Source: an uncultured Clostridia bacterium
GTDB lineage: Bacteria; Bacillota; Clostridia; Oscillospirales; Acutalibacteraceae
NCBI GenBank assembly: GCA_946531445.1
Contig: CAMNAP010000002.1
Location: 7,887 to 71,886, forward strand
Length of the DNA: 64,000 nucleotides
Direction of reading: 5' to 3'
Shown here piece after piece: positions 28,320 to 40,670 of the stretch. Made by a program: the position numbers and the translations under genes. Each line of letters begins with the position of its first letter. Within the stretch, counting starts at the first letter, position 1. The notes under the pieces are model-generated. The model made no database searches. It saw only the letters and a program-made list of their open reading frames with translations, and was not told the origin of the DNA.

Positions 28320-30944
28320 ATGGAATGGACATCATTAAACGACTTAAGGGAAAAGTATCTCAGCTTTTTTGAGAGTAAGGGACATTTAAGGCTTCCGAGC
28401 TTTTCTCTTGTACCTAACAACGACAAAAGCCTTCTTCTTATTAACTCGGGTATGGCGCCGATGAAGAAGTATTTTACGGGAGAGGTAACACCGCCGAGAA
28501 AAAGAGTTACCACCTGTCAGAAATGTATTCGTACTCCCGATATTGAGGAGGTTGGTAAAACCGACAGACACGGAACATTTTTTGAAATGCTCGGCAACTT
28601 CTCTTTCGGCGATTACTTTAAAAAGGAAGCTACCGCATGGGCGTGGGAATTCTGTACGGAAGTTCTTGATATGCCCGTTGACAAGCTTTACGTTACAATT
28701 TATGAAAACGATGACGAGGCTTTTGAAATCTGGACAAAGCAAAACGGAGTTTCTCCCGACCACATTGTAAGACTCGGCAAAGAGGACAATTTCTGGGAGC
28801 ACGGCTCAGGCCCCTGCGGTCCCTGTTCAGAAATCTATTTTGACCGCGGCGAAAAGTACGGCTGCGGCAAGCCCGACTGCGCTCCGGGCTGTGAGTGTGA
28901 CAGATTTACTGAATTCTGGAACAACGTATTTACTCAGTTTGACAACGACGGTAACAACAACTATACGCCCCTTGACCACCCGAACATCGATACGGGTATG
29001 GGACTTGAAAGACTCGCCTGCATTATGCAGGGTGTTGACAATATTTTTGAGGTTGATACCGTTCAGAATATAATGAACAAAATTGCCGAGATTGCGGGCG
29101 TTAAATATCACGACGATAAAAAGCAGGATATTTCGCTTCGCGTTATTACCGACCATGTTCGTTCATCAACCTTTATGATTGGCGACGGCGTTATTCCGTC
29201 AAACAACGGACGCGGCTATGTTTTAAGACGTCTTATAAGACGCGCATGCCGTCACGGCAGACTTCTCGGTGTAAACGAGCCTTTCCTTTATAAAGTCTGC
29301 GATACCGTTATTGCTGAAAATGCAACTGCATATCCCGAGCTTGGCGACAAGGCAGAGCTTATCAAGAAGGTTATTCTTTCGGAAGAGGAGAGCTTCGGCA
29401 AGACAATTGACGCAGGACTTGAGCTTCTTGACGAATACATCGCAAACACCGAGGGAACTGTATTCAGCGGTGATGACGCCTTTAAGCTTAACGACACTTT
29501 TGGCTTCCCGCTTGATTTAACCAAGGATATACTTGAAGAAAAAGGCCTTACTGTTGACGAGGCAAGATTTAACGAGCTTCTTGACTTACAGAAAAAAACT
29601 GCGAGAGCTGCCCGCAAGGACGCAGGCGCAGACGCATGGAAAGGAAGCAGCGTAAAGATTGAGGCTGAGGCTACAGAGTTTACGGGCTATACAGATTTCA
29701 CCTCGGATTCAAAGGTTATAGCGCTCATCAATTCAGAGGGCGAAAGCGTTGAAATGCTCGGCGCAGGCGAAAAGGGCGTTGTTGTTCTTGACAGGACTCC
29801 GTTTTACGCGCTCAGCGGCGGACAGGTTGGCGACAGCGGCGTAATTACTTCGGGTACAAACGTATTTGCAGTTAACGACACAGCCAAGAATGACGACAAG
29901 ATTTATCTTCACAGCGGCGCTGTAAAGAGCGGAGTTATCTCTGTTGGCGACAGCGTTAAGGCTGAAATTGACTCTGTAAGGCGCAGAAGCATTATGAGAA
30001 ACCACACGGCGGCTCATCTTCTTCAGAACGCGCTGAGAAAAGAGCTCGGTACTCACGTTGAGCAGGCAGGACAGCTTGTTGACGAGAACGTTTGCCGCTT
30101 TGACTTTACGCACTTCAACGCGCTGAGCGATGAGGAAATTAAGAAAATTGAGGCTGATGTTAACAGTGTAATTCTTTCGGCTATTCCCGTAACTATGCAG
30201 GAAATGCCGATTGAAGAGGCTAAGAAAATCGGCGCAATGATGCTCTTCGGCGAGAAGTACGGCGATGTTGTACGTGTTGTTACGGCAGGGGACTCGGTTG
30301 AATTCTGCGGCGGTACTCACGTTTCAAACAGCGGCGAGCTCGGACTCTTTAAGATTACTTCCGAATCGTCTGTTGCAAGCGGCGTAAGAAGAATTACAGC
30401 TCTTACCGGTATGAACGCTTACGCTCTTATGAACAGCAACGCAGAGCTTATAAGCACAATTGCAGGAAAGCTCAAGGGCGCTGAAAGCGAGATTGAAAGC
30501 AAGGTTGACTCGCTTATTAACGAAAATAGGGAAAACACAAAGAGAATTGCAAACCTTGAAGCAGAGATTACAAAGCTAAAGAGCGCTGATATGTTCTCTG
30601 AGCCGACTGTAATTGACGGGCTTGAGGTGTTTACAGCCAAGCTTGACGGAGCTACTCCCGAGGCGCTTCGTACAATGGGCGACGATGTTAAGGCAGGAAA
30701 TGACAACGCTGTTGCGATTATTGCAGGCGTAAACGGCGCTAAGGCTACGATTGTTGCAGTCTGCGGCAAGAACGCTGTTGCAAAGGGCGTTAAGGCAGGC
30801 GACATTGTAAGAGAGGTTGCTAAGCTCGCAGGCGGTGGCGGCGGCGGACGTCCTGATTCCGCTATGGCAGGCGCCAAGGATTTATCAAAGCTTGATGAGG
30901 CAATTGCTTCAACGGTTTCAATAGTTGAAAACATTTTAAAATAA
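28320..30944 (+). CDS. alaS: Alanine--tRNA ligase
   Basis: HGTFFEMLGNFSFGDYFK, DTGMGLERL, RNHTAAHLL, EFCGGTHV, GGGGGRP. Confidence 0.98.
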   Translation: MEWTSLNDLREKYLSFFESKGHLRLPSFSLVPNNDKSLLLINSGMAPMKKYFTGEVTPPRKRVTTCQKCIRTPDIEEVGKTDRHGTFFEMLGNFSFGDYFKKEATAWAWEFCTEVLDMPVDKLYVTIYENDDEAFEIWTKQNGVSPDHIVRLGKEDNFWEHGSGPCGPCSEIYFDRGEKYGCGKPDCAPGCECDRFTEFWNNVFTQFDNDGNNNYTPLDHPNIDTGMGLERLACIMQGVDNIFEVDTVQNIMNKIAEIAGVKYHDDKKQDISLRVITDHVRSSTFMIGDGVIPSNNGRGYVLRRLIRRACRHGRLLGVNEPFLYKVCDTVIAENATAYPELGDKAELIKKVILSEEESFGKTIDAGLELLDEYIANTEGTVFSGDDAFKLNDTFGFPLDLTKDILEEKGLTVDEARFNELLDLQKKTARAARKDAGADAWKGSSVKIEAEATEFTGYTDFTSDSKVIALINSEGESVEMLGAGEKGVVVLDRTPFYALSGGQVGDSGVITSGTNVFAVNDTAKNDDKIYLHSGAVKSGVISVGDSVKAEIDSVRRRSIMRNHTAAHLLQNALRKELGTHVEQAGQLVDENVCRFDFTHFNALSDEEIKKIEADVNSVILSAIPVTMQEMPIEEAKKIGAMMLFGEKYGDVVRVVTAGDSVEFCGGTHVSNSGELGLFKITSESSVASGVRRITALTGMNAYALMNSNAELISTIAGKLKGAESEIESKVDSLINENRENTKRIANLEAEITKLKSADMFSEPTVIDGLEVFTAKLDGATPEALRTMGDDVKAGNDNAVAIIAGVNGAKATIVAVCGKNAVAKGVKAGDIVREVAKLAGGGGGGRPDSAMAGAKDLSKLDEAIASTVSIVENILK

Positions 30945-31868: not shown

Positions 31869-32468
31869 ATGCATATAGTATGTCTTGATTTAGAGGGTGT
31901 TCTTGTACCCGAAATATGGATTGCGTTCTCTGAGGAGAGCGGAATTCCCGAGCTTAAAAGAACTACAAGGGACGAGCCCGACTATGAAAAATTAATGAAT
32001 TACAGAATTAAAATTCTTAAGGAGCACGGGCTCGGCTTAAAGGAAATTCAGGATACAATCAGAAAGATTGAGCCGCTTGAGGGCGCAAAGGAATTTCTTG
32101 ACGAGTTGAGAAAGCTCGGTCAGGTAATTATTATAAGCGATACGTTTACGCAGTTTGCTATGCCGCTTATGGAAAAGCTCGGCTATCCGACTCTTATGTG
32201 TAACGAGCTTGTTGTAAGCGAAAGCGGAGAGGTTACCGGCTTTAAGATGAGATGTGAAAAGAGCAAGCTCACAACCGTTAAAGCTCTTCAGTCTATAGGC
32301 TATGAAACTATCGCAAGCGGCGACAGCTTTAACGACCTTGCTATGATTCAGGCAGGCAAGGCAGGCTTTTTATTCCGCACAACCGAGCAGATTAAAAAGG
32401 ATTATCCCGATATTCCCGCGTTTGAAACATACAGCGAGCTTCTTGAGGCAATCAAAGGTGTTATATAA
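31869..32468 (+). CDS. thrH: Phosphoserine phosphatase / homoserine phosphotransferase (HAD)
   Basis: CLDLEGVLVPEIW, TTRDEPDY, SDTF, GDSFNDLAM. Confidence 0.92.
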   Translation: MHIVCLDLEGVLVPEIWIAFSEESGIPELKRTTRDEPDYEKLMNYRIKILKEHGLGLKEIQDTIRKIEPLEGAKEFLDELRKLGQVIIISDTFTQFAMPLMEKLGYPTLMCNELVVSESGEVTGFKMRCEKSKLTTVKALQSIGYETIASGDSFNDLAMIQAGKAGFLFRTTEQIKKDYPDIPAFETYSELLEAIKGVI

Positions 32469-32788
32469 TGTTTGAAGAGGTTTATTCAAGTTTTAAAGCC
32501 TTGATGAAAAACTGGATTATTTCTCAGCTTGTGCTTGATGTTGTTTTTGTTGTAGGCGGAGTCGTTTGTGTAACAAATGAAAGAATGCTTTTATTCGGCA
32601 TTGTATTTTTAGCGTATTTTATCGGGCAGATAATAATAATTACAAAGGTGTTCGGCTCGGTAAAGCGCTTTGGAGATTATCTGAATATAAACGGCAGATA
32701 TCAGACGGCTGTTAGGAATTCAGACGATGACGCAATAAAACAAGCGCAAAATGATATAATTGAGTATATGAAAAAAGATACAGTGTAA
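32468..32788 (+). CDS. Small hypothetical membrane protein
   Basis: Two hydrophobic segments; start overlaps the thrH stop. Confidence 0.6.
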   Translation: MFEEVYSSFKALMKNWIISQLVLDVVFVVGGVVCVTNERMLLFGIVFLAYFIGQIIIITKVFGSVKRFGDYLNINGRYQTAVRNSDDDAIKQAQNDIIEYMKKDTV

Positions 32789-32808
32789 AGCGTACACTGT
32801 ATCTTTTT
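32772..32808. terminator. Bidirectional intrinsic terminator
   Basis: 16-bp stem AAAAAGATACAGTGTA-aagcg-TACACTGTATCTTTTT between convergent genes. Confidence 0.85.
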
Positions 32809-32820
32809 ATTTGCATTAAA

Positions 32821-34383
32821 TTATCTCTTGATGTCGTCCCACTTTGTTCCGCCAACCTGGAAGATATCGTCGAATTTGTAAACGTTTGTCTCTTCCTTTG
32901 TGTGGTTAGGATACCATACCTGAGCGAAGAACGGGTTTGTTCTTGCGATATTGTCATAGTCCCAAGCCTTCTGGGGTACGTAGCACTCGGGGCACCAGTG
33001 ACCGCCGAGGAGAATAAGGTTAGGTGAAGCTTCAAATTCAGCTCCGCAGTAGCCGCACTTCCACTTAAGCTTTGTAGCAAGGTCGCCCTTCTTCATCTTC
33101 TTGCTTAAGCATTCGCCGCCTCTGAACTTAGCCGCCTGCTGCATATCCTTGATGTCAAGCTCTGATTCGGGCTTGGTTTCGTCATAGCCGTGGTCAAGCT
33201 TGTAGTTGTCAGCGTCTGAATTGTCTTTGTTGAACTTGCGGATTTCAAAGTCCTCCCACTTTTTCGGGATAGCCTTGTAATCCTCGATTGAGCCGTAATA
33301 AGCTGTGATTCTCTGAGGATGTACCTTAGCAACCCAGTCAAGAGTACCGAAGTCCTTAGTTTTAGCAAGAGCCTTCATAAACGGCTTAGCTGCGGCTGCA
33401 ACTGCGCTCTTGGGAAGGTAACGGGGAATTCTGAAGTAGAATTCAACCTGCTTAGCGAGTCTGTCAAAGTATTCCTGAATAGGAAGATTCTCACGGAAGT
33501 GAAGGAATTCCTCAAGCTTGTCGCCGTCTGCATAGAACTGACCGTGGAAGTTCTTTGTAATGAACCAGTTGGGTTCAAAGAGCTTTTCGGGACCTGCAAG
33601 ACCGAGCGTGCCGAGAAGGAGCTGCTCAAACTCGTAGTTTGAAATTCTGTATTCCTTACCTGAGCCGATGTTGAAATAGTGATTCCAGAAATCTGAGCCG
33701 AGGTTACCTGCAGCGTCCTCAAGAACGAGGTTACACATAAGACGGCCTGAATCCTCAACTGTACACCACTCAAGAACGCCGTTAATCGGAACGTGGAACA
33801 TAATCGGGTCCATATTCTTGAGAATGTTGGGGTAAAGAATACCCGACTGTCTCATAACAACCCAGTTTTTAATTCCGCTTTCAACGAAGGTTCTCTCTGC
33901 TACTACCTTTGATACTGCGTAGTGGTCATAAATTGAAACCTTAATCGGGTCGCCGCAGCGTCCCCAGTGGATAGGATAGTTTCTGTCGCCCGTTTCGGCA
34001 ACCGTTCCTATGTAGCAAACCTTAACCTTATCGGGGTCCTGCTGTGCAAGAACTGCTTTACAGATATTCTCTGCTGCGCCGATATTTGTTTTCTGTGTTC
34101 TGTAAGGCTTCCAGTCTGCAGCGGGGGATACCATACCGCCTACGTGAAGAACGTAGTCAGCGCCTGTAACGCCCTCTAAGATAGAAGCGTAATCGGTAAG
34201 ATCGCCCCAAACGATTTTAACATTCGGCTTAGCAGCCAAATCAGCAAGAAGCTTAATGTTTTTAGGGCTTTTTCTTGCGAGGAGCTTGAGATTAATCTCG
34301 TTAGGATGCTTAATCATTTCCTGAACTGCAGCCCAGCCCATATTGCCTGTACCGCCTGTCATAAATACGGTTTTCTTAGCCAT
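32821..34383 (-). CDS. Extended SDR (NAD(P)-dependent epimerase/3beta-HSD-like) fused to a C-terminal Zn-ribbon
   Basis: TGGTGNMG Rossmann motif; GDLTD; T127 / Y155xxxK159 (YAVSK); C-terminal WKCGYCG...GHWCPEC. Confidence 0.85.
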   Translation of the reverse strand: MAKKTVFMTGGTGNMGWAAVQEMIKHPNEINLKLLARKSPKNIKLLADLAAKPNVKIVWGDLTDYASILEGVTGADYVLHVGGMVSPAADWKPYRTQKTNIGAAENICKAVLAQQDPDKVKVCYIGTVAETGDRNYPIHWGRCGDPIKVSIYDHYAVSKVVAERTFVESGIKNWVVMRQSGILYPNILKNMDPIMFHVPINGVLEWCTVEDSGRLMCNLVLEDAAGNLGSDFWNHYFNIGSGKEYRISNYEFEQLLLGTLGLAGPEKLFEPNWFITKNFHGQFYADGDKLEEFLHFRENLPIQEYFDRLAKQVEFYFRIPRYLPKSAVAAAAKPFMKALAKTKDFGTLDWVAKVHPQRITAYYGSIEDYKAIPKKWEDFEIRKFNKDNSDADNYKLDHGYDETKPESELDIKDMQQAAKFRGGECLSKKMKKGDLATKLKWKCGYCGAEFEASPNLILLGGHWCPECYVPQKAWDYDNIARTNPFFAQVWYPNHTKEETNVYKFDDIFQVGGTKWDDIKR

Positions 34384-34426
34384 AAATTTTCCTCCTTAAA
34401 TTGTGAATATGTTTATACACATACTA

Positions 34427-34455
34427 ATTATAAACTAAATATAAACAAAATACAA
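34427..34455 (-). promoter_or_regulatory. sigmaA-type promoter for the SDR gene
   Basis: Minus strand TTGTAT-17 bp-TATAAT. Confidence 0.7.
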
Positions 34456-34555: not shown

Positions 34556-34577
34556 TATTTTAGAAGGAGTGGTACTT

Positions 34578-36047
34578 TTGAAGAAAAATTTTTCGGTTTT
34601 TATTTCAATAATACTCTCTCTTTTGGTGTTTGTTGCGGGCTTTGCCGCTTTTGCTCAGGAGCTTTCGCCAAAAGGCGAGGGACATATTGACCCTATTTTG
34701 GTTAATGCGCAGAATACAGCGATTGCGCTTGACAAAACAAGCTATGTATTTGACGGCAAGGAAAAATGCCCGAAGGCTACTGTTACATATACCGAGGAGG
34801 GCAAAAAGAACGTTCTTGAAAACGGGATAGATTATTACGTTACATATCAGAATAACACAGCCCCCGGAAAGGCTACCGTTGTTGTCACTTTCGGAAACAA
34901 GTATTCGGGAACGCTTAATTCGTATTTCACTATCGCTCCTGCGAAAACAGTCGGAATAAAAGCTGACTCACGGACTTATTCGTCTTTCAGGGCTTTGTGG
35001 ACTAAGCAGAGCGGAGTTTCGGGATATGAGATTAAGTTTACCGCGTCGGGCGAAGCTGCAAAGAATATTGACGCGGCGGCAAGCGCTAATTCTTACATAT
35101 TCAGGTCGCTTTCGTCAGACACGATTTACAGCGTTGCTGTACGCTCATACGTTACTGTTGATTCAAAGCGCGTTTACGGCGCATACTCAGACATTGTTAA
35201 GGTAGCTACAAAGAAAATTGTAGGCTCGCCGAAAGTAAACGGATACTGCTCTCTTACCTCGCGTCCGACGCTTGAATGGAAAAAGGTAAAGAAGGCAAAG
35301 AAGTATGTAATTTACCGCTCAACAAGTAAGAACGGCGAATATAAGAAAATAGGAACGACTAAAGCGCTGAGCTTTGCGGATAAGAAAGCTAAAATGCACA
35401 AGACCTATTACTACAAGGTTAAGGCGCTCAGACGTTACAGGAAAAAGAACTACTTATCAAAGGCGTCAGAGGCTGTTAAGGTTAAGGCGCTAAAGACTGT
35501 TCTTGTGGGTGACTCGGTGCTTGAGAGCGTTCAGGCGTATAAGACTCTTCCCGCTGCAACATACGTTGTTAAAATAGGAATGGGCACATACACCTTCTAT
35601 AGCAGCTACTATTACAAGGTTGGCGGCAAACCCGCAACGGGCTGTGAAAAGGTTATAAGCTGCAAGCCCGACAGAGTTATTATGATGTTCGGAATGAACG
35701 AGACTGCATACAAGGGCAACTCGGGAATTCTTGAATATTATAAGTACGCTATAGACGACATTAAGGCGGCGAGAAAGGGCGTTGAAATTATTCTTCTTCC
35801 CGTTTCGCCGACAAAGCCGACGAGCGACAAGAGTATTCCAAAAAAGAAGAGAATTAACTCGTTTAACAAGGCACTCAAGAAATTTGCAAAGCAGAACGGC
35901 TGTAAGTATTACGATTTTACAGGACCGTTTAAGGATAAAAACGGAAATCTTCTTAACAAGTATGACGGCGGCGACGGCTGTCACTGGAAGCCGTCAAGCT
36001 GTAAGCTCTTTATTGAGCAGATGAAAAAGTATGTTAAAAACAATTAG
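34578..36047 (+). CDS. Secreted FN3-repeat + SGNH/GDSL hydrolase-fold protein
   Basis: Signal peptide; FN3-like YEI..Y.V.VRSY and Y.IYRS..YYYKV; SGNH blocks VGDS, FGMNE, DGCH; TTG start follows AAGGAG. Confidence 0.85.
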   Translation: MKKNFSVFISIILSLLVFVAGFAAFAQELSPKGEGHIDPILVNAQNTAIALDKTSYVFDGKEKCPKATVTYTEEGKKNVLENGIDYYVTYQNNTAPGKATVVVTFGNKYSGTLNSYFTIAPAKTVGIKADSRTYSSFRALWTKQSGVSGYEIKFTASGEAAKNIDAAASANSYIFRSLSSDTIYSVAVRSYVTVDSKRVYGAYSDIVKVATKKIVGSPKVNGYCSLTSRPTLEWKKVKKAKKYVIYRSTSKNGEYKKIGTTKALSFADKKAKMHKTYYYKVKALRRYRKKNYLSKASEAVKVKALKTVLVGDSVLESVQAYKTLPAATYVVKIGMGTYTFYSSYYYKVGGKPATGCEKVISCKPDRVIMMFGMNETAYKGNSGILEYYKYAIDDIKAARKGVEIILLPVSPTKPTSDKSIPKKKRINSFNKALKKFAKQNGCKYYDFTGPFKDKNGNLLNKYDGGDGCHWKPSSCKLFIEQMKKYVKNN

Positions 36048-36069
36048 TGATATTTTTGGAGGAATGAAA

Positions 36070-36582
36070 ATGGAAAACACAAAAACACGCAGAATTTCAG
36101 TCAGAATTTTAAGCGTTATTATGGCGCTTGTAGCAATTGTCGGCTCGTTCTCTGTTCAGTCAACGGTTTACGCTGCATCTAAATCTCCCGTTACAGCATA
36201 CGCCGCTGCAAAGAAGGCTTACGGTAAGAGCTTCCCGCTTTCAACATCTAACAGAATCAGCGGTAAGAGCGTTGTTCTCGGCGTTAAGACGGCTGACTGC
36301 GAAAGCTATTACGCGGCTCAGAAGTTCTCTTCAAGCAGTAAAGAGGTTTATGAAATCTTTATCTGCAAGGTAAAGAAGGGCAAAAAGTCCTCAGTTAAAT
36401 CTCAGCTTAAAAAGCACATTAAAAACGAAAAGACTTCAATGAAATCTTACCTTTCAAAGAAGGGCAAAAAGCTCTTTAGCAACTACAAGGTTGGCTCTGT
36501 AGGTAACTACGTATATCTTGTAATGGTTGATACAAAGAGGAATTCAAAGGCAGTTAAGGCAATTAAAAAGAATTTAAAATAA
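36070..36582 (+). CDS. Secreted basic DUF4358-like protein
   Basis: Signal peptide; EIFICKVK...GNYVYLVM pattern; sits immediately before the MBOAT gene. Confidence 0.7.
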   Translation: MENTKTRRISVRILSVIMALVAIVGSFSVQSTVYAASKSPVTAYAAAKKAYGKSFPLSTSNRISGKSVVLGVKTADCESYYAAQKFSSSSKEVYEIFICKVKKGKKSSVKSQLKKHIKNEKTSMKSYLSKKGKKLFSNYKVGSVGNYVYLVMVDTKRNSKAVKAIKKNLK

Positions 36583-36595
36583 AGGATTAGTTTAA

Positions 36596-37996
36596 ATGAT
36601 TTTCAGCAGTATTCTGTTTTTATTCAGATTTCTGCCGATTGTACTGTTACTGTATTTTGTTGTACCGAAAAAGTTTAAAAACGCCGTACTTTTTTTAGTC
36701 AGCCTCATTTTCTACGGCTGGGACGAACCGCTTTATATTCTTTTAATGCTTTTCTCTACGGTGCTTGACTATTCGGTAGGACGCGCAATTGAAAAATCAA
36801 GACTAAAAAACACAAAAAACGGAGCAAAGCTTGCTTTGCTCTGTTCTGTTGTAATAAATCTCGGTTTGCTCGGATTTTTCAAATATTCAAACTTTGTTGT
36901 AAATACGCTTAACGGTATTTTCGGACTTGATATTCCGAATCTTGATATTACTTTGCCGATTGGTATTTCGTTTTACACGTTCCAGACGCTTTCGTATTCA
37001 ATTGACGTTTACCGCGGTAAGGTTAATGCACAGCATAATATAGTTAATTTCGGCGCGTATGTATCTATGTTTCCGCAGCTTATTGCGGGACCGATTGTTC
37101 AGTACAAAACAGTAGCCAAAGAGCTTGACGACAGGACGATAACCCTTGACGGCTTCTCTTACGGAGTAAGACGTTTTGCGCAGGGACTTGCAAAAAAGGT
37201 TCTTATTGCAAACACGGTAGGCGAGCTGTTCAACGAGCTTGCGTGCAAGACCGACGGACTTTCCGCCGCATCGGCGTGGCTCGGAATTATTGCGTTTACG
37301 ATTCAGATTTATTTTGACTTTTCGGGTTATTCGGATATGGCAATCGGACTCGGAAGAATGTTCGGTTTCAGATTTCTTGAAAACTTCATTTATCCCTATG
37401 AGTCAAAGAGCATAACGGAATTCTGGAGAAGGTGGCACATTTCTCTCGGCTCGTTCTTCAGGGAGTACCTTTACATTCCGCTGGGCGGAAACAGGAAGGG
37501 AAACGCAAGACAGATTCTTAATCTGTTCATTGTGTGGGCGCTTACGGGACTGTGGCACGGCGCAAACTGGAATTTTGTAATATGGGGACTTTACTATTTC
37601 GTTGTTCTTGTTATTGAAAAATTTGCGCTTAAAAAACTTCTTGACAAGGCGCCGTCGGCAGTTGCACATATTTACACAATTGTTATTTTTGTTATCGGCT
37701 GGGCGATATTCGCTTATCCCGATATGGCGGACGGCTCTTACTATGTGGGCGCTTTGCTCGGACAAAACGGTCTGTTCAGCGGGGACACGCTTTATTATCT
37801 TTCAAACTACGGTGTAGTTCTTATTGCGGGCGTTCTGTTTTCAACCTCGCTTCCCAAAAAGCTTTATCAGAAGCTTACGGTTAAGCCGCAGGTTAAGCTC
37901 GCAGTACAGCTTGTATTTATTATTGTATCTGTAGTGATGTCTGTAATGTTCCTTGTTTCAGATTCGTACAATCCGTTTTTATATTTCAGATTTTAG
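36596..37996 (+). CDS. MBOAT family O-acyltransferase (AlgI/PatA-like)
   Basis: LPIGISFYTFQ, FPQLIAGPI, YFDFSGYSDMA, EFWRRWHISL, GLWHGA, NPFLYFRF. Confidence 0.95.
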   Translation: MIFSSILFLFRFLPIVLLLYFVVPKKFKNAVLFLVSLIFYGWDEPLYILLMLFSTVLDYSVGRAIEKSRLKNTKNGAKLALLCSVVINLGLLGFFKYSNFVVNTLNGIFGLDIPNLDITLPIGISFYTFQTLSYSIDVYRGKVNAQHNIVNFGAYVSMFPQLIAGPIVQYKTVAKELDDRTITLDGFSYGVRRFAQGLAKKVLIANTVGELFNELACKTDGLSAASAWLGIIAFTIQIYFDFSGYSDMAIGLGRMFGFRFLENFIYPYESKSITEFWRRWHISLGSFFREYLYIPLGGNRKGNARQILNLFIVWALTGLWHGANWNFVIWGLYYFVVLVIEKFALKKLLDKAPSAVAHIYTIVIFVIGWAIFAYPDMADGSYYVGALLGQNGLFSGDTLYYLSNYGVVLIAGVLFSTSLPKKLYQKLTVKPQVKLAVQLVFIIVSVVMSVMFLVSDSYNPFLYFRF

Positions 37997-38007
37997 AGGT
38001 TATTGAT

Positions 38008-39264
38008 TTGAAAAAGAAATATTCAGTTATAACTGTTGCCGTATTTCTTGCTCTTATAGTATTCTTTACTTCGTTTTCTGTTTTCGGCAAAAAGTCTGAC
38101 TTTTCAGAAAAGGAAAACAGGGCGCTTCAGATGTACCCCGACGTGTCGCTTGATTCAATCGGAGACGGCACGTTTCAGGAGGAGTATGACGCGTTCCTTT
38201 CCGACCAGTTTGAATTCCGCGATTTCTGGGTAAAGGCGAGAACTGAGCTTTTAAGAAAGCTCGGACGAAAGGATATAAACGGAGTTTATTACGGCAAGGA
38301 CGGTTATCTTATTGAAAAATATACCGAGCGCGATTTCAAAAGCGACGATGTTGAGAATAACGTCAGCTGCCTTACGGAGTTTTTGAACAGAAACGCTGAA
38401 AAGGGATACAGCGTCAGCGTTGCGTTTGTTCCGTCAAAAGCGGGCGTTCTTAAGAATAAAATGCCCTCCGGAGCCGCTCCTTACGATACTTCGGTTATTG
38501 CCGAAGAGGTGTACAGCGGAGCTTCTGACATGGTTAATAAGATTGATTTATATCTTCCGCTGACTTCTCACAACAATGAATATATCTACTATAAAACCGA
38601 CCACCACTGGACGTCACTGGGAGCTTACTATGCGTACAGAGAGATAGCGGATAAAATGGCGCTTGACGCAGTTGACATAAGCGCTTTTAAGAGCGTGACG
38701 GTAAGCGACAGCTTCCTCGGTTCAACGTATGACAAGGTGCAGTATAAAACCGAGCCTGACAGCATTACGCGATATGACAGCAGGGTTAAGGTGACGGTTG
38801 ATTACGGAAACGACAGAGCTGCTTCGGATTCGCTTTATGACGAGAGCTTCCTTTCACAAAAGAGCAAGTACGATTACTTCCTCGGCGGTAATTTTGCAAG
38901 AGTTGACATAAATACAGACGTCAAAAACGGCAAAACGCTTCTTCTTATTAAGGATTCTTACGCTAATTCTGTGCTGCCGTTTCTTGTAAATAATTTTGAG
39001 CATATAATTATGCTTGATTTAAGATTTATTACAGACGATGTTCAGGAGATAATTGACTCTGAAAAGCCTGATGAGCTTCTTGTTCTTTACAATGTTGAAA
39101 AGTTTATGGGTGACGAGAATCAGTACAAGCTTGAGGAAGGCGCTGAAACAGGGGAAGATGCAAGTGATGAAGCAGCTTCTGAGGAAACCGGCGACAGCGC
39201 TGAGGACGAGGCAATTCTTAAAGAGCTTGAAGAGGAAGAGGCAAGGGAAGGCACAGAAGATTAA
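38008..39264 (+). CDS. DHHW family extracellular O-acyltransferase partner (AlgJ/PatB-like)
   Basis: N-terminal TM, SEKENRAL, YYKTDHHWT, IKDSYAN; acidic C-terminal tail. Confidence 0.88.
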   Translation: MKKKYSVITVAVFLALIVFFTSFSVFGKKSDFSEKENRALQMYPDVSLDSIGDGTFQEEYDAFLSDQFEFRDFWVKARTELLRKLGRKDINGVYYGKDGYLIEKYTERDFKSDDVENNVSCLTEFLNRNAEKGYSVSVAFVPSKAGVLKNKMPSGAAPYDTSVIAEEVYSGASDMVNKIDLYLPLTSHNNEYIYYKTDHHWTSLGAYYAYREIADKMALDAVDISAFKSVTVSDSFLGSTYDKVQYKTEPDSITRYDSRVKVTVDYGNDRAASDSLYDESFLSQKSKYDYFLGGNFARVDINTDVKNGKTLLLIKDSYANSVLPFLVNNFEHIIMLDLRFITDDVQEIIDSEKPDELLVLYNVEKFMGDENQYKLEEGAETGEDASDEAASEETGDSAEDEAILKELEEEEAREGTED

Positions 39265-39442: not shown

Positions 39443-39473
39443 AGACGCATACGGTTTTCGTATGCGTTTTGTT
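39443..39473 (+). terminator. Riboswitch expression-platform terminator
   Basis: AGACGCATACG-gtttt-CGTATGCGTTT followed by TGTT, before the metK RBS. Confidence 0.8.
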
Positions 39474-39491
39474 ATTATGAGGAGGGTAAAA

Positions 39492-40670
39492 ATGGCTAAA
39501 TATTTATTTACAAGCGAATCGGTAACTAAGGGACATCCCGATAAAATATGCGACCAGATTTCCGACGCAATTCTTGACGCAATGCTCGAGCAGGACCCGA
39601 TGAGCCGTGTTGCGTGTGAAACAGCAATTACGACAGGTCAGGTTCTTGTAATGGGCGAGATTACAACTAAGGCTCAGGTTGACATTCAGAAGATAGTAAG
39701 AGATACCATCGTAGGTATCGGCTACGATGACGACAAGAAGGGCTTCAACGGCAACACATGCGCAGTTATGATTGCTCTTGACAAGCAGTCAACCGATATT
39801 GCTATGGGCGTTGACAAGTCATATGAGCTTAAAAATAACGAAGAGGACGAGGACAACCTCAACGGCGCAGGTGACCAGGGTATGATGTTCGGTTATGCCT
39901 GCAACGAAACAAAAGAGCTTATGCCGCTTCCTATTTCACTTGCTCACAAGCTTACGTTAAAGCTTACAGAGGTAAGAGAAAACGGAACGCTTCCTTATCT
40001 TTATTCTGACGGTAAGTCTCAGGTTACTGTTGAATATGTTGACGGTCAGCCGAAGAGAGTTACAACAGTTGTTATTTCCTCACAGCACAGCGCAGACGTA
40101 AGCCTTGAGCAGCTCAGAGAAGATATAATTGAAAAGGTAATTAAGACAACTATCCCGGCAGAGCTTATGGACGACGAGACGGTATTTTACGTTAACCCGA
40201 CAGGAAGATTTGTTATTGGCGGACCTATGGGCGACAGCGGACTTACAGGCCGTAAGATTATTGTTGATACATACGGCGGTTACGCACGTCACGGCGGCGG
40301 AGCTTTCTCGGGTAAAGACCCGACAAAGGTTGACCGCAGCGCTGCTTACGCTGCTCGCTGGGTAGCTAAGAACATTGTTGCAGCGGGACTTGCTGACAAA
40401 TGCGAGGTGGAGCTTGCATATGCAATCGGTGTAGCTAAGCCCGTTTCTGTTCTTGTTGACACTTTCGGAACAGGCAGGAAGAGTGACGACGAAATCGGCG
40501 AAATCGTAAATAAGGTATTTGACCTCAGACCGTCGGCTATTATCCGTGCGCTTGACCTCAGACGTCCGATTTACAACGCTGTTGCGGCTTACGGACATAT
40601 GGGCCGTGAGGATTTGGGTGTAAGCTGGGAAAAGCTTGACAAGGTAGACGAAATTAAAAAGTATATGTAA
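39492..40670 (+). CDS. metK: S-adenosylmethionine synthetase
   Basis: [28 protein letters not shown]; ATG 39492 follows GGAGGG. Confidence 0.98.

Follow-up and report, generated by a model that had tools for sequence, protein, structure and literature searches.

A predicted SpiR-type sterol 3beta-hydroxysteroid dehydrogenase and its Cys4 unit in an uncultured Acutalibacteraceae bacterium

SpiR-type enzymes control the share of intestinal cholesterol that is converted to non-absorbable coprostanol, and the microbiome may thereby lower host cholesterol. SpiR of Eubacterium coprostanoligenes was described in April 2026 as an NAD(H)-dependent 3beta-hydroxysteroid dehydrogenase (3beta-HSD)/delta5-4 isomerase and 3-keto reductase (Arp et al., Nat Commun 2026;17:3495, PMC13079761). 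The enzyme of 520 amino acids (aa), for which a T126/Y155/K159 triad and the conserved cysteines C443/C446/C464/C467 were reported, oxidises cholesterol to cholestenone in lysates and pregnenolone to progesterone, and reduces 3-ketosteroids to 3beta-alcohols (PMC13079761). It is a dimer that binds NADH and NAD+ (dissociation constant, Kd, ~1 uM) and not NADPH; the Kd for cholesterol is 539 nM, that for coprostanone is likewise sub-micromolar, and a sterol side chain is preferred (PMC13079761). SpiR is 39.5% identical to the gut 3beta-hydroxysteroid dehydrogenase/isomerase (3beta-HSDH/I) dw0523, which has the same reaction type (PMC13079761). Here we analyzed a stretch of 64,000 nucleotides (nt), referred to as the window, from an uncultured Clostridia bacterium of the family Acutalibacteraceae (assembly GCA_946531445.1, contig CAMNAP010000002.1, positions 7,887 to 71,886 of the forward strand). 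A gene on its minus strand (32821..34383) very probably encodes a SpiR ortholog that performs sterol 3beta-oxidation/isomerisation and 3-keto reduction. The enzyme family is already known and the gene lies well inside it; beyond the gene call itself, and outweighing it, the points still of interest are the kind of metal site, a transfer to parabasalids and the ruminant context.

The reference for all comparisons was SpiR of E. coprostanoligenes ATCC 51222 (WP_242941742.1, locus L036:8001-9560), translated from the genome. In BLASTP the two proteins are 85% identical with 93% positives and align free of gaps over all 520 residues. The score of 928 bits lies far above the 500 bits used by the authors as the spiR homolog threshold (PMC13079761), which was set with DIAMOND, a program whose scores may differ slightly. 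None of the 79 substitutions falls on a catalytic or metal-ligand position, and Y155, K159, C443, C446, C464, C467 and the length of 520 aa are shared. A maximum-likelihood tree built from 83 members of the family groups the window protein with SpiR in a 6-member clade (ultrafast bootstrap (UFBoot)/Shimodaira-Hasegawa-like approximate likelihood ratio test (SH-aLRT) 99/96) inside a 16-member clade (100/99). The functional range of the family is set by a much more distant member, SpiR_DTU089 (GCA_015066225.1), which is active together with its SpiE at 57% identity to the E. coprostanoligenes enzyme (bioRxiv 10.64898/2026.10.06.757028). The initial annotation of the window, made from the sequence alone, had proposed a sterol or steroid oxidoreductase, possibly a 3beta-HSD/delta5-4 isomerase, a proposal with which the close relationship to SpiR agrees. 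The gene and the parts of the encoded protein are as follows.

32821..34383, minus strand: spiR ortholog, 520 aa, coordinates including the stop codon (open reading frame (ORF) call and 85% identity to SpiR)
33484..34383, minus strand: extended short-chain dehydrogenase/reductase (SDR) catalytic region, residues ~1-300, with S/T127, Y155 and K159 (YAVSK) (Pfam, AlphaFold2 (AF2) and Foldseek)
34336..34356, minus strand: Rossmann dinucleotide-binding motif GGTGNMG, residues 10-16
33172..33483, minus strand: helical C-terminal extension, residues ~301-404, conserved across the family (block predicted local distance difference test (pLDDT) 89-96 in the AF2 model)
32974..33171, minus strand: predicted single DUF4379/CapR treble-clef unit, residues ~405-470, with C443/C446/C464/C467
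32824..32973, minus strand: conserved Trp/Tyr-rich C-terminal tail, residues 471-520

The SDR core with its GxxGxxG motif, the T127/Y155/K159 triad and the four-cysteine tail were all found where the initial annotation had placed them. Among 66 SpiR-clade homologs, conservation of G10 and G13 in the GGTGNMG motif is 90% or more, and G16, Y155 and K159 are invariant. Position 127 is Thr or Ser in all close homologs, while position 126 is an invariant Gly in the family, including the genome-derived SpiR of ATCC 51222; T127 had been named correctly from the window sequence, and the T126 of the SpiR paper (PMC13079761) appears to be off by one. A second suggestion, that the Ala-Arg-Lys after beta2 hints at NADP(H), did not hold: the same LARKSPKN segment occurs in SpiR, whose cofactor is NAD(H) and which does not bind NADPH. 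By analogy with the E. coprostanoligenes ortholog, from which we take activity, cofactor and dimeric state, catalysis would proceed via the S/T127-Y155-K159 triad beside a Rossmann-bound NAD.

Pfam scores for PF01370 Epimerase (40.7 bits, gathering score 20.9, E 2.4e-10) and PF01073 3Beta_HSD (29.2 bits, gathering score 22, E 6e-7), together with the GxxGxxG and YxxxK motifs, place the protein among the extended SDRs. These matches span residues 6-169 only (3Beta_HSD, residues 8-169), and neither residues ~301-404 nor the tail (residues 471-520) matched a Pfam family. The tail nevertheless carries seven residues (W474, Y476, F485, F486, W490, H494 and Y502) that are invariant in the 66 homologs. 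A single-chain AF2 model built from the alignment of these 66 sequences was confident throughout (pLDDT 91.9, predicted template modelling (pTM) score 0.91), while residues 401-520 folded alone and without an alignment gave a pLDDT of 44.7, unusable as a search query. The window protein has its fold and triad in common with dw0523, AcmA, Rv1106c and the eukaryotic 3beta-HSD (PF01073), which lack the ~220-residue C-terminal extension and the metal module of SpiR.

The source annotations, 'NAD-dependent epimerase/dehydratase family protein' and 'nucleoside-diphosphate-sugar epimerase', imply instead a nucleotide-sugar epimerase or dehydratase. The top Pfam match is indeed Epimerase, the best NCBIfam and PDB sequence matches are PseB, FnlA and CapE, and the best Foldseek matches are RmlB, GMD and GalE. 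All of these are generic and confined to the N-terminal Rossmann part or to the level of the fold, and the nucleotide-sugar assignment was rejected on these grounds. The NCBIfam equivalogs scored at most 47 bits against cut-offs of 365-730 (PseB, FnlA and RmlB with 47, 42 and 17 bits against 408, 730 and 365), over N-terminal residues only, and the PDB sequence matches span ~110 residues. The Foldseek matches listed from the PDB are all extended SDRs, sugar-nucleotide enzymes and their kin, with 14-20% identity (template modelling (TM) score 0.62-0.73, normalised to the target), matches that reflect fold, not function, in a comparison based on the predicted model; no solved steroid 3beta-HSD/isomerase was among the top 50 matches listed. 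Clustering with UDP-sugar epimerases had been named in the initial annotation as the outcome that would speak against a sterol role, and what was found is a likeness of the generic fold at the low identity just given. It had also noted the lack of nucleotide-sugar genes nearby; in the gene neighbourhood of the window no such gene, and no sugar-pathway gene, adjoins spiR. With an 85%-identical ortholog that acts on sterols, we consider a nucleotide-sugar enzyme hardly credible.

The SpiR assignment is accompanied by the presence of the known pathway partners. No SDR gene recurred next to spiR across 80 close loci, and SpiE was therefore sought genome-wide, by scanning this genome and that of E. 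coprostanoligenes for extended SDRs. SpiE, a 5beta-ene-reductase that co-evolves with SpiR, is defined by the invariant residues D77, R79, S118 and Y138 (PMC13692258). In E. coprostanoligenes, an ORF of 339 aa carries these residues at the SpiE positions. Its ortholog in this genome, also 339 aa (G000:C4 about 29788-30807, equal to L102:1495-2514), is 90% identical to it, keeps all four residues and is unlinked to spiR.

The third published enzyme, IsmA (ECOP170, WP_078769004.1), performs the same reactions as SpiR in the same organisms, namely cholesterol oxidation to cholestenone and the interconversion of coprostanone and coprostanol. Unlike the extended SDR SpiR, it is a classical SDR of 279 aa that is strictly NADP+-dependent and has the triad S138/Y151/K155 (PMC7435688), and the two are ~10.7% identical (PMC13079761). 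IsmB is distinct from IsmA: it is an Fe-S flavoenzyme for which a role in the second step has been proposed. With IsmA as given in Table S2 of Kenny et al. 2020 (PMC7435688) as the query, tblastn found an ortholog at G000:C140:3-806 (-), 80% identical over residues 1-267 of 279 and truncated at the contig end. Classical SDRs on contigs C141 and C53 had been considered as IsmA and were discarded when the authentic sequence gave the ortholog on C140. Judged by homology, this genome encodes all three published sterol-to-5beta-stanol genes (SpiR, SpiE and IsmA), as does that of E. coprostanoligenes, and the window adds one more species in which they occur together.

According to this assignment, the SpiR ortholog would carry out the first and the last steps of sterol-to-5beta-stanol conversion. 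It would oxidise the 3beta-hydroxyl of delta5-sterols with a shift of the double bond (cholesterol to 4-cholesten-3-one) and would return 5beta-3-ketosteroids to 3beta-alcohols (coprostanone to coprostanol). Together with the SpiE ortholog, a predicted 4-ene 5beta-reductase, it would dispose of two electrons per sterol, and the IsmA ortholog may serve as a parallel, NADP-dependent 3beta-HSD.

The codon usage of spiR was compared with that of the 1501 non-overlapping ORFs called in the 1.88-Mb genome, using EF-Tu, EF-G and the ribosomal proteins as the reference set for the codon adaptation index (CAI). The CAI of spiR is 0.77 against a genome median of 0.52 (rank 20/1501), and after self-consistent iteration the gene ranks 16/1501, between fructose-bisphosphate aldolase and phosphoglycerate kinase; its codon adaptation is on par with that of GAPDH and EF-Tu. 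This bears out the strong codon bias that had been noticed by eye in the initial annotation. The other window genes near spiR have ranks of 120-1451. The SpiE ortholog ranks 70/1501, and the IsmA ortholog, with a CAI of ~0.60 and an equivalent rank of ~270, is far below SpiR and SpiE. Between this genome and E. coprostanoligenes, SpiR is 85% identical, MetK 87% and a ProC-like neighbour 67%, showing that SpiR is conserved about as strongly as MetK between these two genomes. The following signals surround the gene.

34427..34455, minus strand: promoter-like TTGTAT-17 nt-TATAAT (TTGTAT 34455-34450, TATAAT 34432-34427), read from the sequence, putative in function
34391..34397, minus strand: perfect Shine-Dalgarno sequence AAGGAGG, 7 nt upstream of the spiR ATG
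32772..32808: predicted hairpin terminator with a 16-bp stem and T-runs on both strands, common to spiR and the convergent gene at 32468-32788 (+)

The promoter-like element was absent from a consensus-scan list because its -35 hexamer, TTGTAT, matches the consensus at only 3/6 positions. The genes flanking spiR on either side lie on the opposite strand, and spiR is therefore predicted to be transcribed alone, in line with the monocistronic unit with its own promoter and terminator that had been described earlier. Codon usage predicts very high expression of spiR, an expectation to which the promoter-like element and the ribosome-binding site add, and the glycolytic level of codon optimisation lends support to a central place of sterol reduction in the physiology of these organisms.

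Several observations weigh against a sterol enzyme acting in vivo as proposed. A codon bias at the level of glycolysis is surprising, as the sterol substrate is scarce relative to carbohydrate flux. The activity of SpiR was established with E. coli lysates, whole cells and isothermal titration calorimetry, without steady-state kinetics or a knockout (PMC13079761). With native lysate of E. coprostanoligenes, Kenny et al. 2020 observed oxidation of cholesterol strictly with NADP+, matching IsmA (PMC7435688). This fits poorly with an abundant NAD-specific SpiR performing the first step; the discrepancy is not addressed in either SpiR paper. The physiological substrate of SpiR-like proteins might accordingly be a compound other than a sterol, with the enzyme acting in high-flux central redox metabolism on another 3-hydroxy/3-keto compound and its 3beta-HSD activity being a side activity. 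The CAI rank beside glycolytic enzymes, the MetK-like conservation, the NADP+-only oxidation of cholesterol by native lysate as opposed to the NAD specificity of SpiR (PMC13079761), the lack of a measured kcat/Km and the homologs in ruminant-gut metagenome-assembled genomes (MAGs) and in Tritrichomonas (see below) would all be in keeping with such an enzyme. Against it stand the sub-micromolar Kd for cholesterol and coprostanone and the preferred sterol side chain, as well as the finding that the presence of spiR predicts coprostanone in three human cohorts with an area under the curve of 0.95 (PMC13079761). SpiE, which co-evolves with SpiR, is moreover encoded in this genome as well. Phytosterols abound in ruminant guts, and 5beta-stigmastanol is a faecal marker in standard use for herbivores. 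We consider a non-sterol substrate improbable, and a sterol-converting SpiR ortholog remains the assignment that we favour.

Full-length relatives of the window protein number in the thousands, many of them 80-89% identical. In the genome's own GTDB family, a homolog was found in 29/151 sampled genomes at 46-85% identity, which fits the patchy, clade-restricted spiR distribution reported before (PMC13079761). Among the 13 nearest loci (88-98% identical), 8 have goat, sheep, roe deer, red deer or a rumen catalogue (RUG) in their titles, while a ruminant-type title occurs in one of the five closest (90-98% identical). In contrast to SpiR of ATCC 51222, the nearest relatives of the window protein are mostly ruminant MAGs, not pig or human. 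Because of this, and because of the herbivore marker 5beta-stigmastanol, phytosterols are plausible substrates in the organism of the window. The ruminant relatives hint that the SpiR pathway could yield the 5beta-phytostanols that serve as herbivore faecal markers.

We then considered the four cysteines, which Arp et al. proposed to form a rubredoxin-like Fe(Cys)4 redox centre for electron transfer. The motifs C443-x2-C446 and C464-x2-C467 provide two CxxC knuckles whose geometry is tetrahedral in the AF2 model of the paper (PMC13079761), and CGYCG and WCPEC look like rubredoxin knuckles. Of the four, C443 and C467 never vary in the 66 SpiR-clade homologs, with C446 and C464 conserved in at least 90%, as would suit a redox centre. 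The proposal was derived from modelling only, and the words iron, zinc and ICP (inductively coupled plasma) are absent from the text of the paper (PMC13079761). In the window protein rubredoxin (PF00301) gave no Pfam match at E<=1, whereas DUF4379 (PF14311) matched residues 437-467 with E=7e-4. An hhalign comparison of the SpiR module with three rubredoxin sequences gave a probability of 14.5% over a 13-column knuckle; the same module aligned with DUF4379/CapR units with a probability of 99.75% (E 2.9e-27) over 60 columns.

Homology to the DUF4379/CapR repeat was also apparent from an exhaustive HMMER search, which detected the segment of residues ~405-470 in long, unrelated proteins, there repeated in tandem as 6-16 units. 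Three of these repeat-array proteins, scanned against Pfam, matched DUF4379 (E 1e-49 to 1e-59) and CapR (PF21817), and a hidden Markov model of the SpiR module detected 259 units, recurring every ~64 aa, in 27 array proteins. Common to the unit are a helix ending in RGGxCLS, followed by KLxWxC and then WCPxC. In SpiR, unlike the DUF4379/CapR arrays, one unit alone is joined to an enzyme, and the SpiR clade has a CxxC in place of the C-x3-H of the repeats. This C-x3-H replaces C443-x2-C446, with His in place of C446, in 142/150 array units and in 35/53 distant full-length relatives, and in some relatives all ligands are gone. From a Cys-His-Cys-Cys ancestry and the occasional loss of ligands, a structural zinc is expected and not a conserved redox iron centre.

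Other observations speak against this assignment of the module. At 20.1 bits, the DUF4379 match of the window protein does not reach the gathering score of 24.5, and neither does that of E. coprostanoligenes SpiR (22.1 bits), while the Tritrichomonas protein P0115 exceeds it (25.1 bits). A PDB profile search with the Cys module returned nothing significant and no solved structure showing the metal; the sole chain annotated as DUF4379, 6sga_Fd, had an E of 0.45, and 'Bagel' matches were rejected as summed repeat artefacts. SDR hydride transfer requires no metal, which weighs against a redox role of the rubredoxin type. Taken together, the Cys4 element of SpiR is most likely, on the basis of these alignments, a single DUF4379/CapR unit that binds a structural zinc; we infer the identity of the metal, which is not readable from sequence. 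A rubredoxin-like redox centre appears unlikely to us. The zinc-ribbon or treble-clef character assigned to the tail in the initial annotation is borne out by the homology to this repeat, and its location (about 32984-33140) corresponds to F420-C467 at nt 32983-33126.

Tandem DUF4379/CapR arrays were seen in P0169, P0174, P0186 and 24 more proteins, with the consensus IExMxxIAxxRGGxCLS...KLxWxCxxGHxW...GxWCPxC.

Full-length SpiR-like proteins were also found in Tritrichomonas, namely P0104 and P0105 of T. foetus and P0109 and P0115 of T. musculus, at 58-61% identity and 719-750 bits. Their contigs measure 3.6 and 11.4 Mb, and the homologs are therefore not bacterial contamination. The proteins have hydrophobic, signal-peptide-like N-terminal extensions followed by N-x-S/T sites. 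They and N-extended metagenome sequences make up a 14-member clade (100/97) nested within the bacterial SpiR-like group, and the family may thus have reached gut parabasalids by gene transfer. The search by Arp et al. was limited to GTDB prokaryotes (PMC13079761), and the Tritrichomonas homologs go unmentioned in the SpiR papers. For SpiE, no named eukaryote was among the top 120 matches listed (down to 65% identity). The homology of the Cys4 unit, the Tritrichomonas homologs and the ruminant-MAG relatives go beyond that paper. It seems to us evenly balanced whether the published picture of SpiR needs two corrections, the first being to read the Cys4 site as a treble clef with structural zinc, a single DUF4379/CapR unit of Cys-His-Cys-Cys ancestry captured by an SDR. 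The second would be that the family extends beyond Acutalibacteraceae to parabasalids, in which case a eukaryote living as a gut commensal may also convert sterols from the host or the diet.

The conserved neighbour of spiR is metK, which adjoins it directly and divergently in E. coprostanoligenes and in most relatives (67/80 close loci). The window locus shares this divergent orientation, with metK at 39462-40670 (+), and differs from that of ATCC 51222 in a four-gene O-acylation cluster (34569-39264, +) between spiR and metK. The cluster encodes FN3-SGNH, DUF4358-like, MBOAT and DHHW-like proteins, and looks like an insertion relative to the usual spiR-metK arrangement. On the other side, the convergent gene at 32468-32788 (+) encodes a predicted membrane protein of 106 aa with one of the lowest CAI values of the genome (rank 1451).

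Elsewhere in the genome, a 495-aa ORF at G000:C48:9685-11169 (-), starting MDTRFAISEYPNAAALTAQLDALIKK, has the 7th highest CAI, and two paralogous small proteins on the same contig, C48, also have very high values (ranks 13 and 26).

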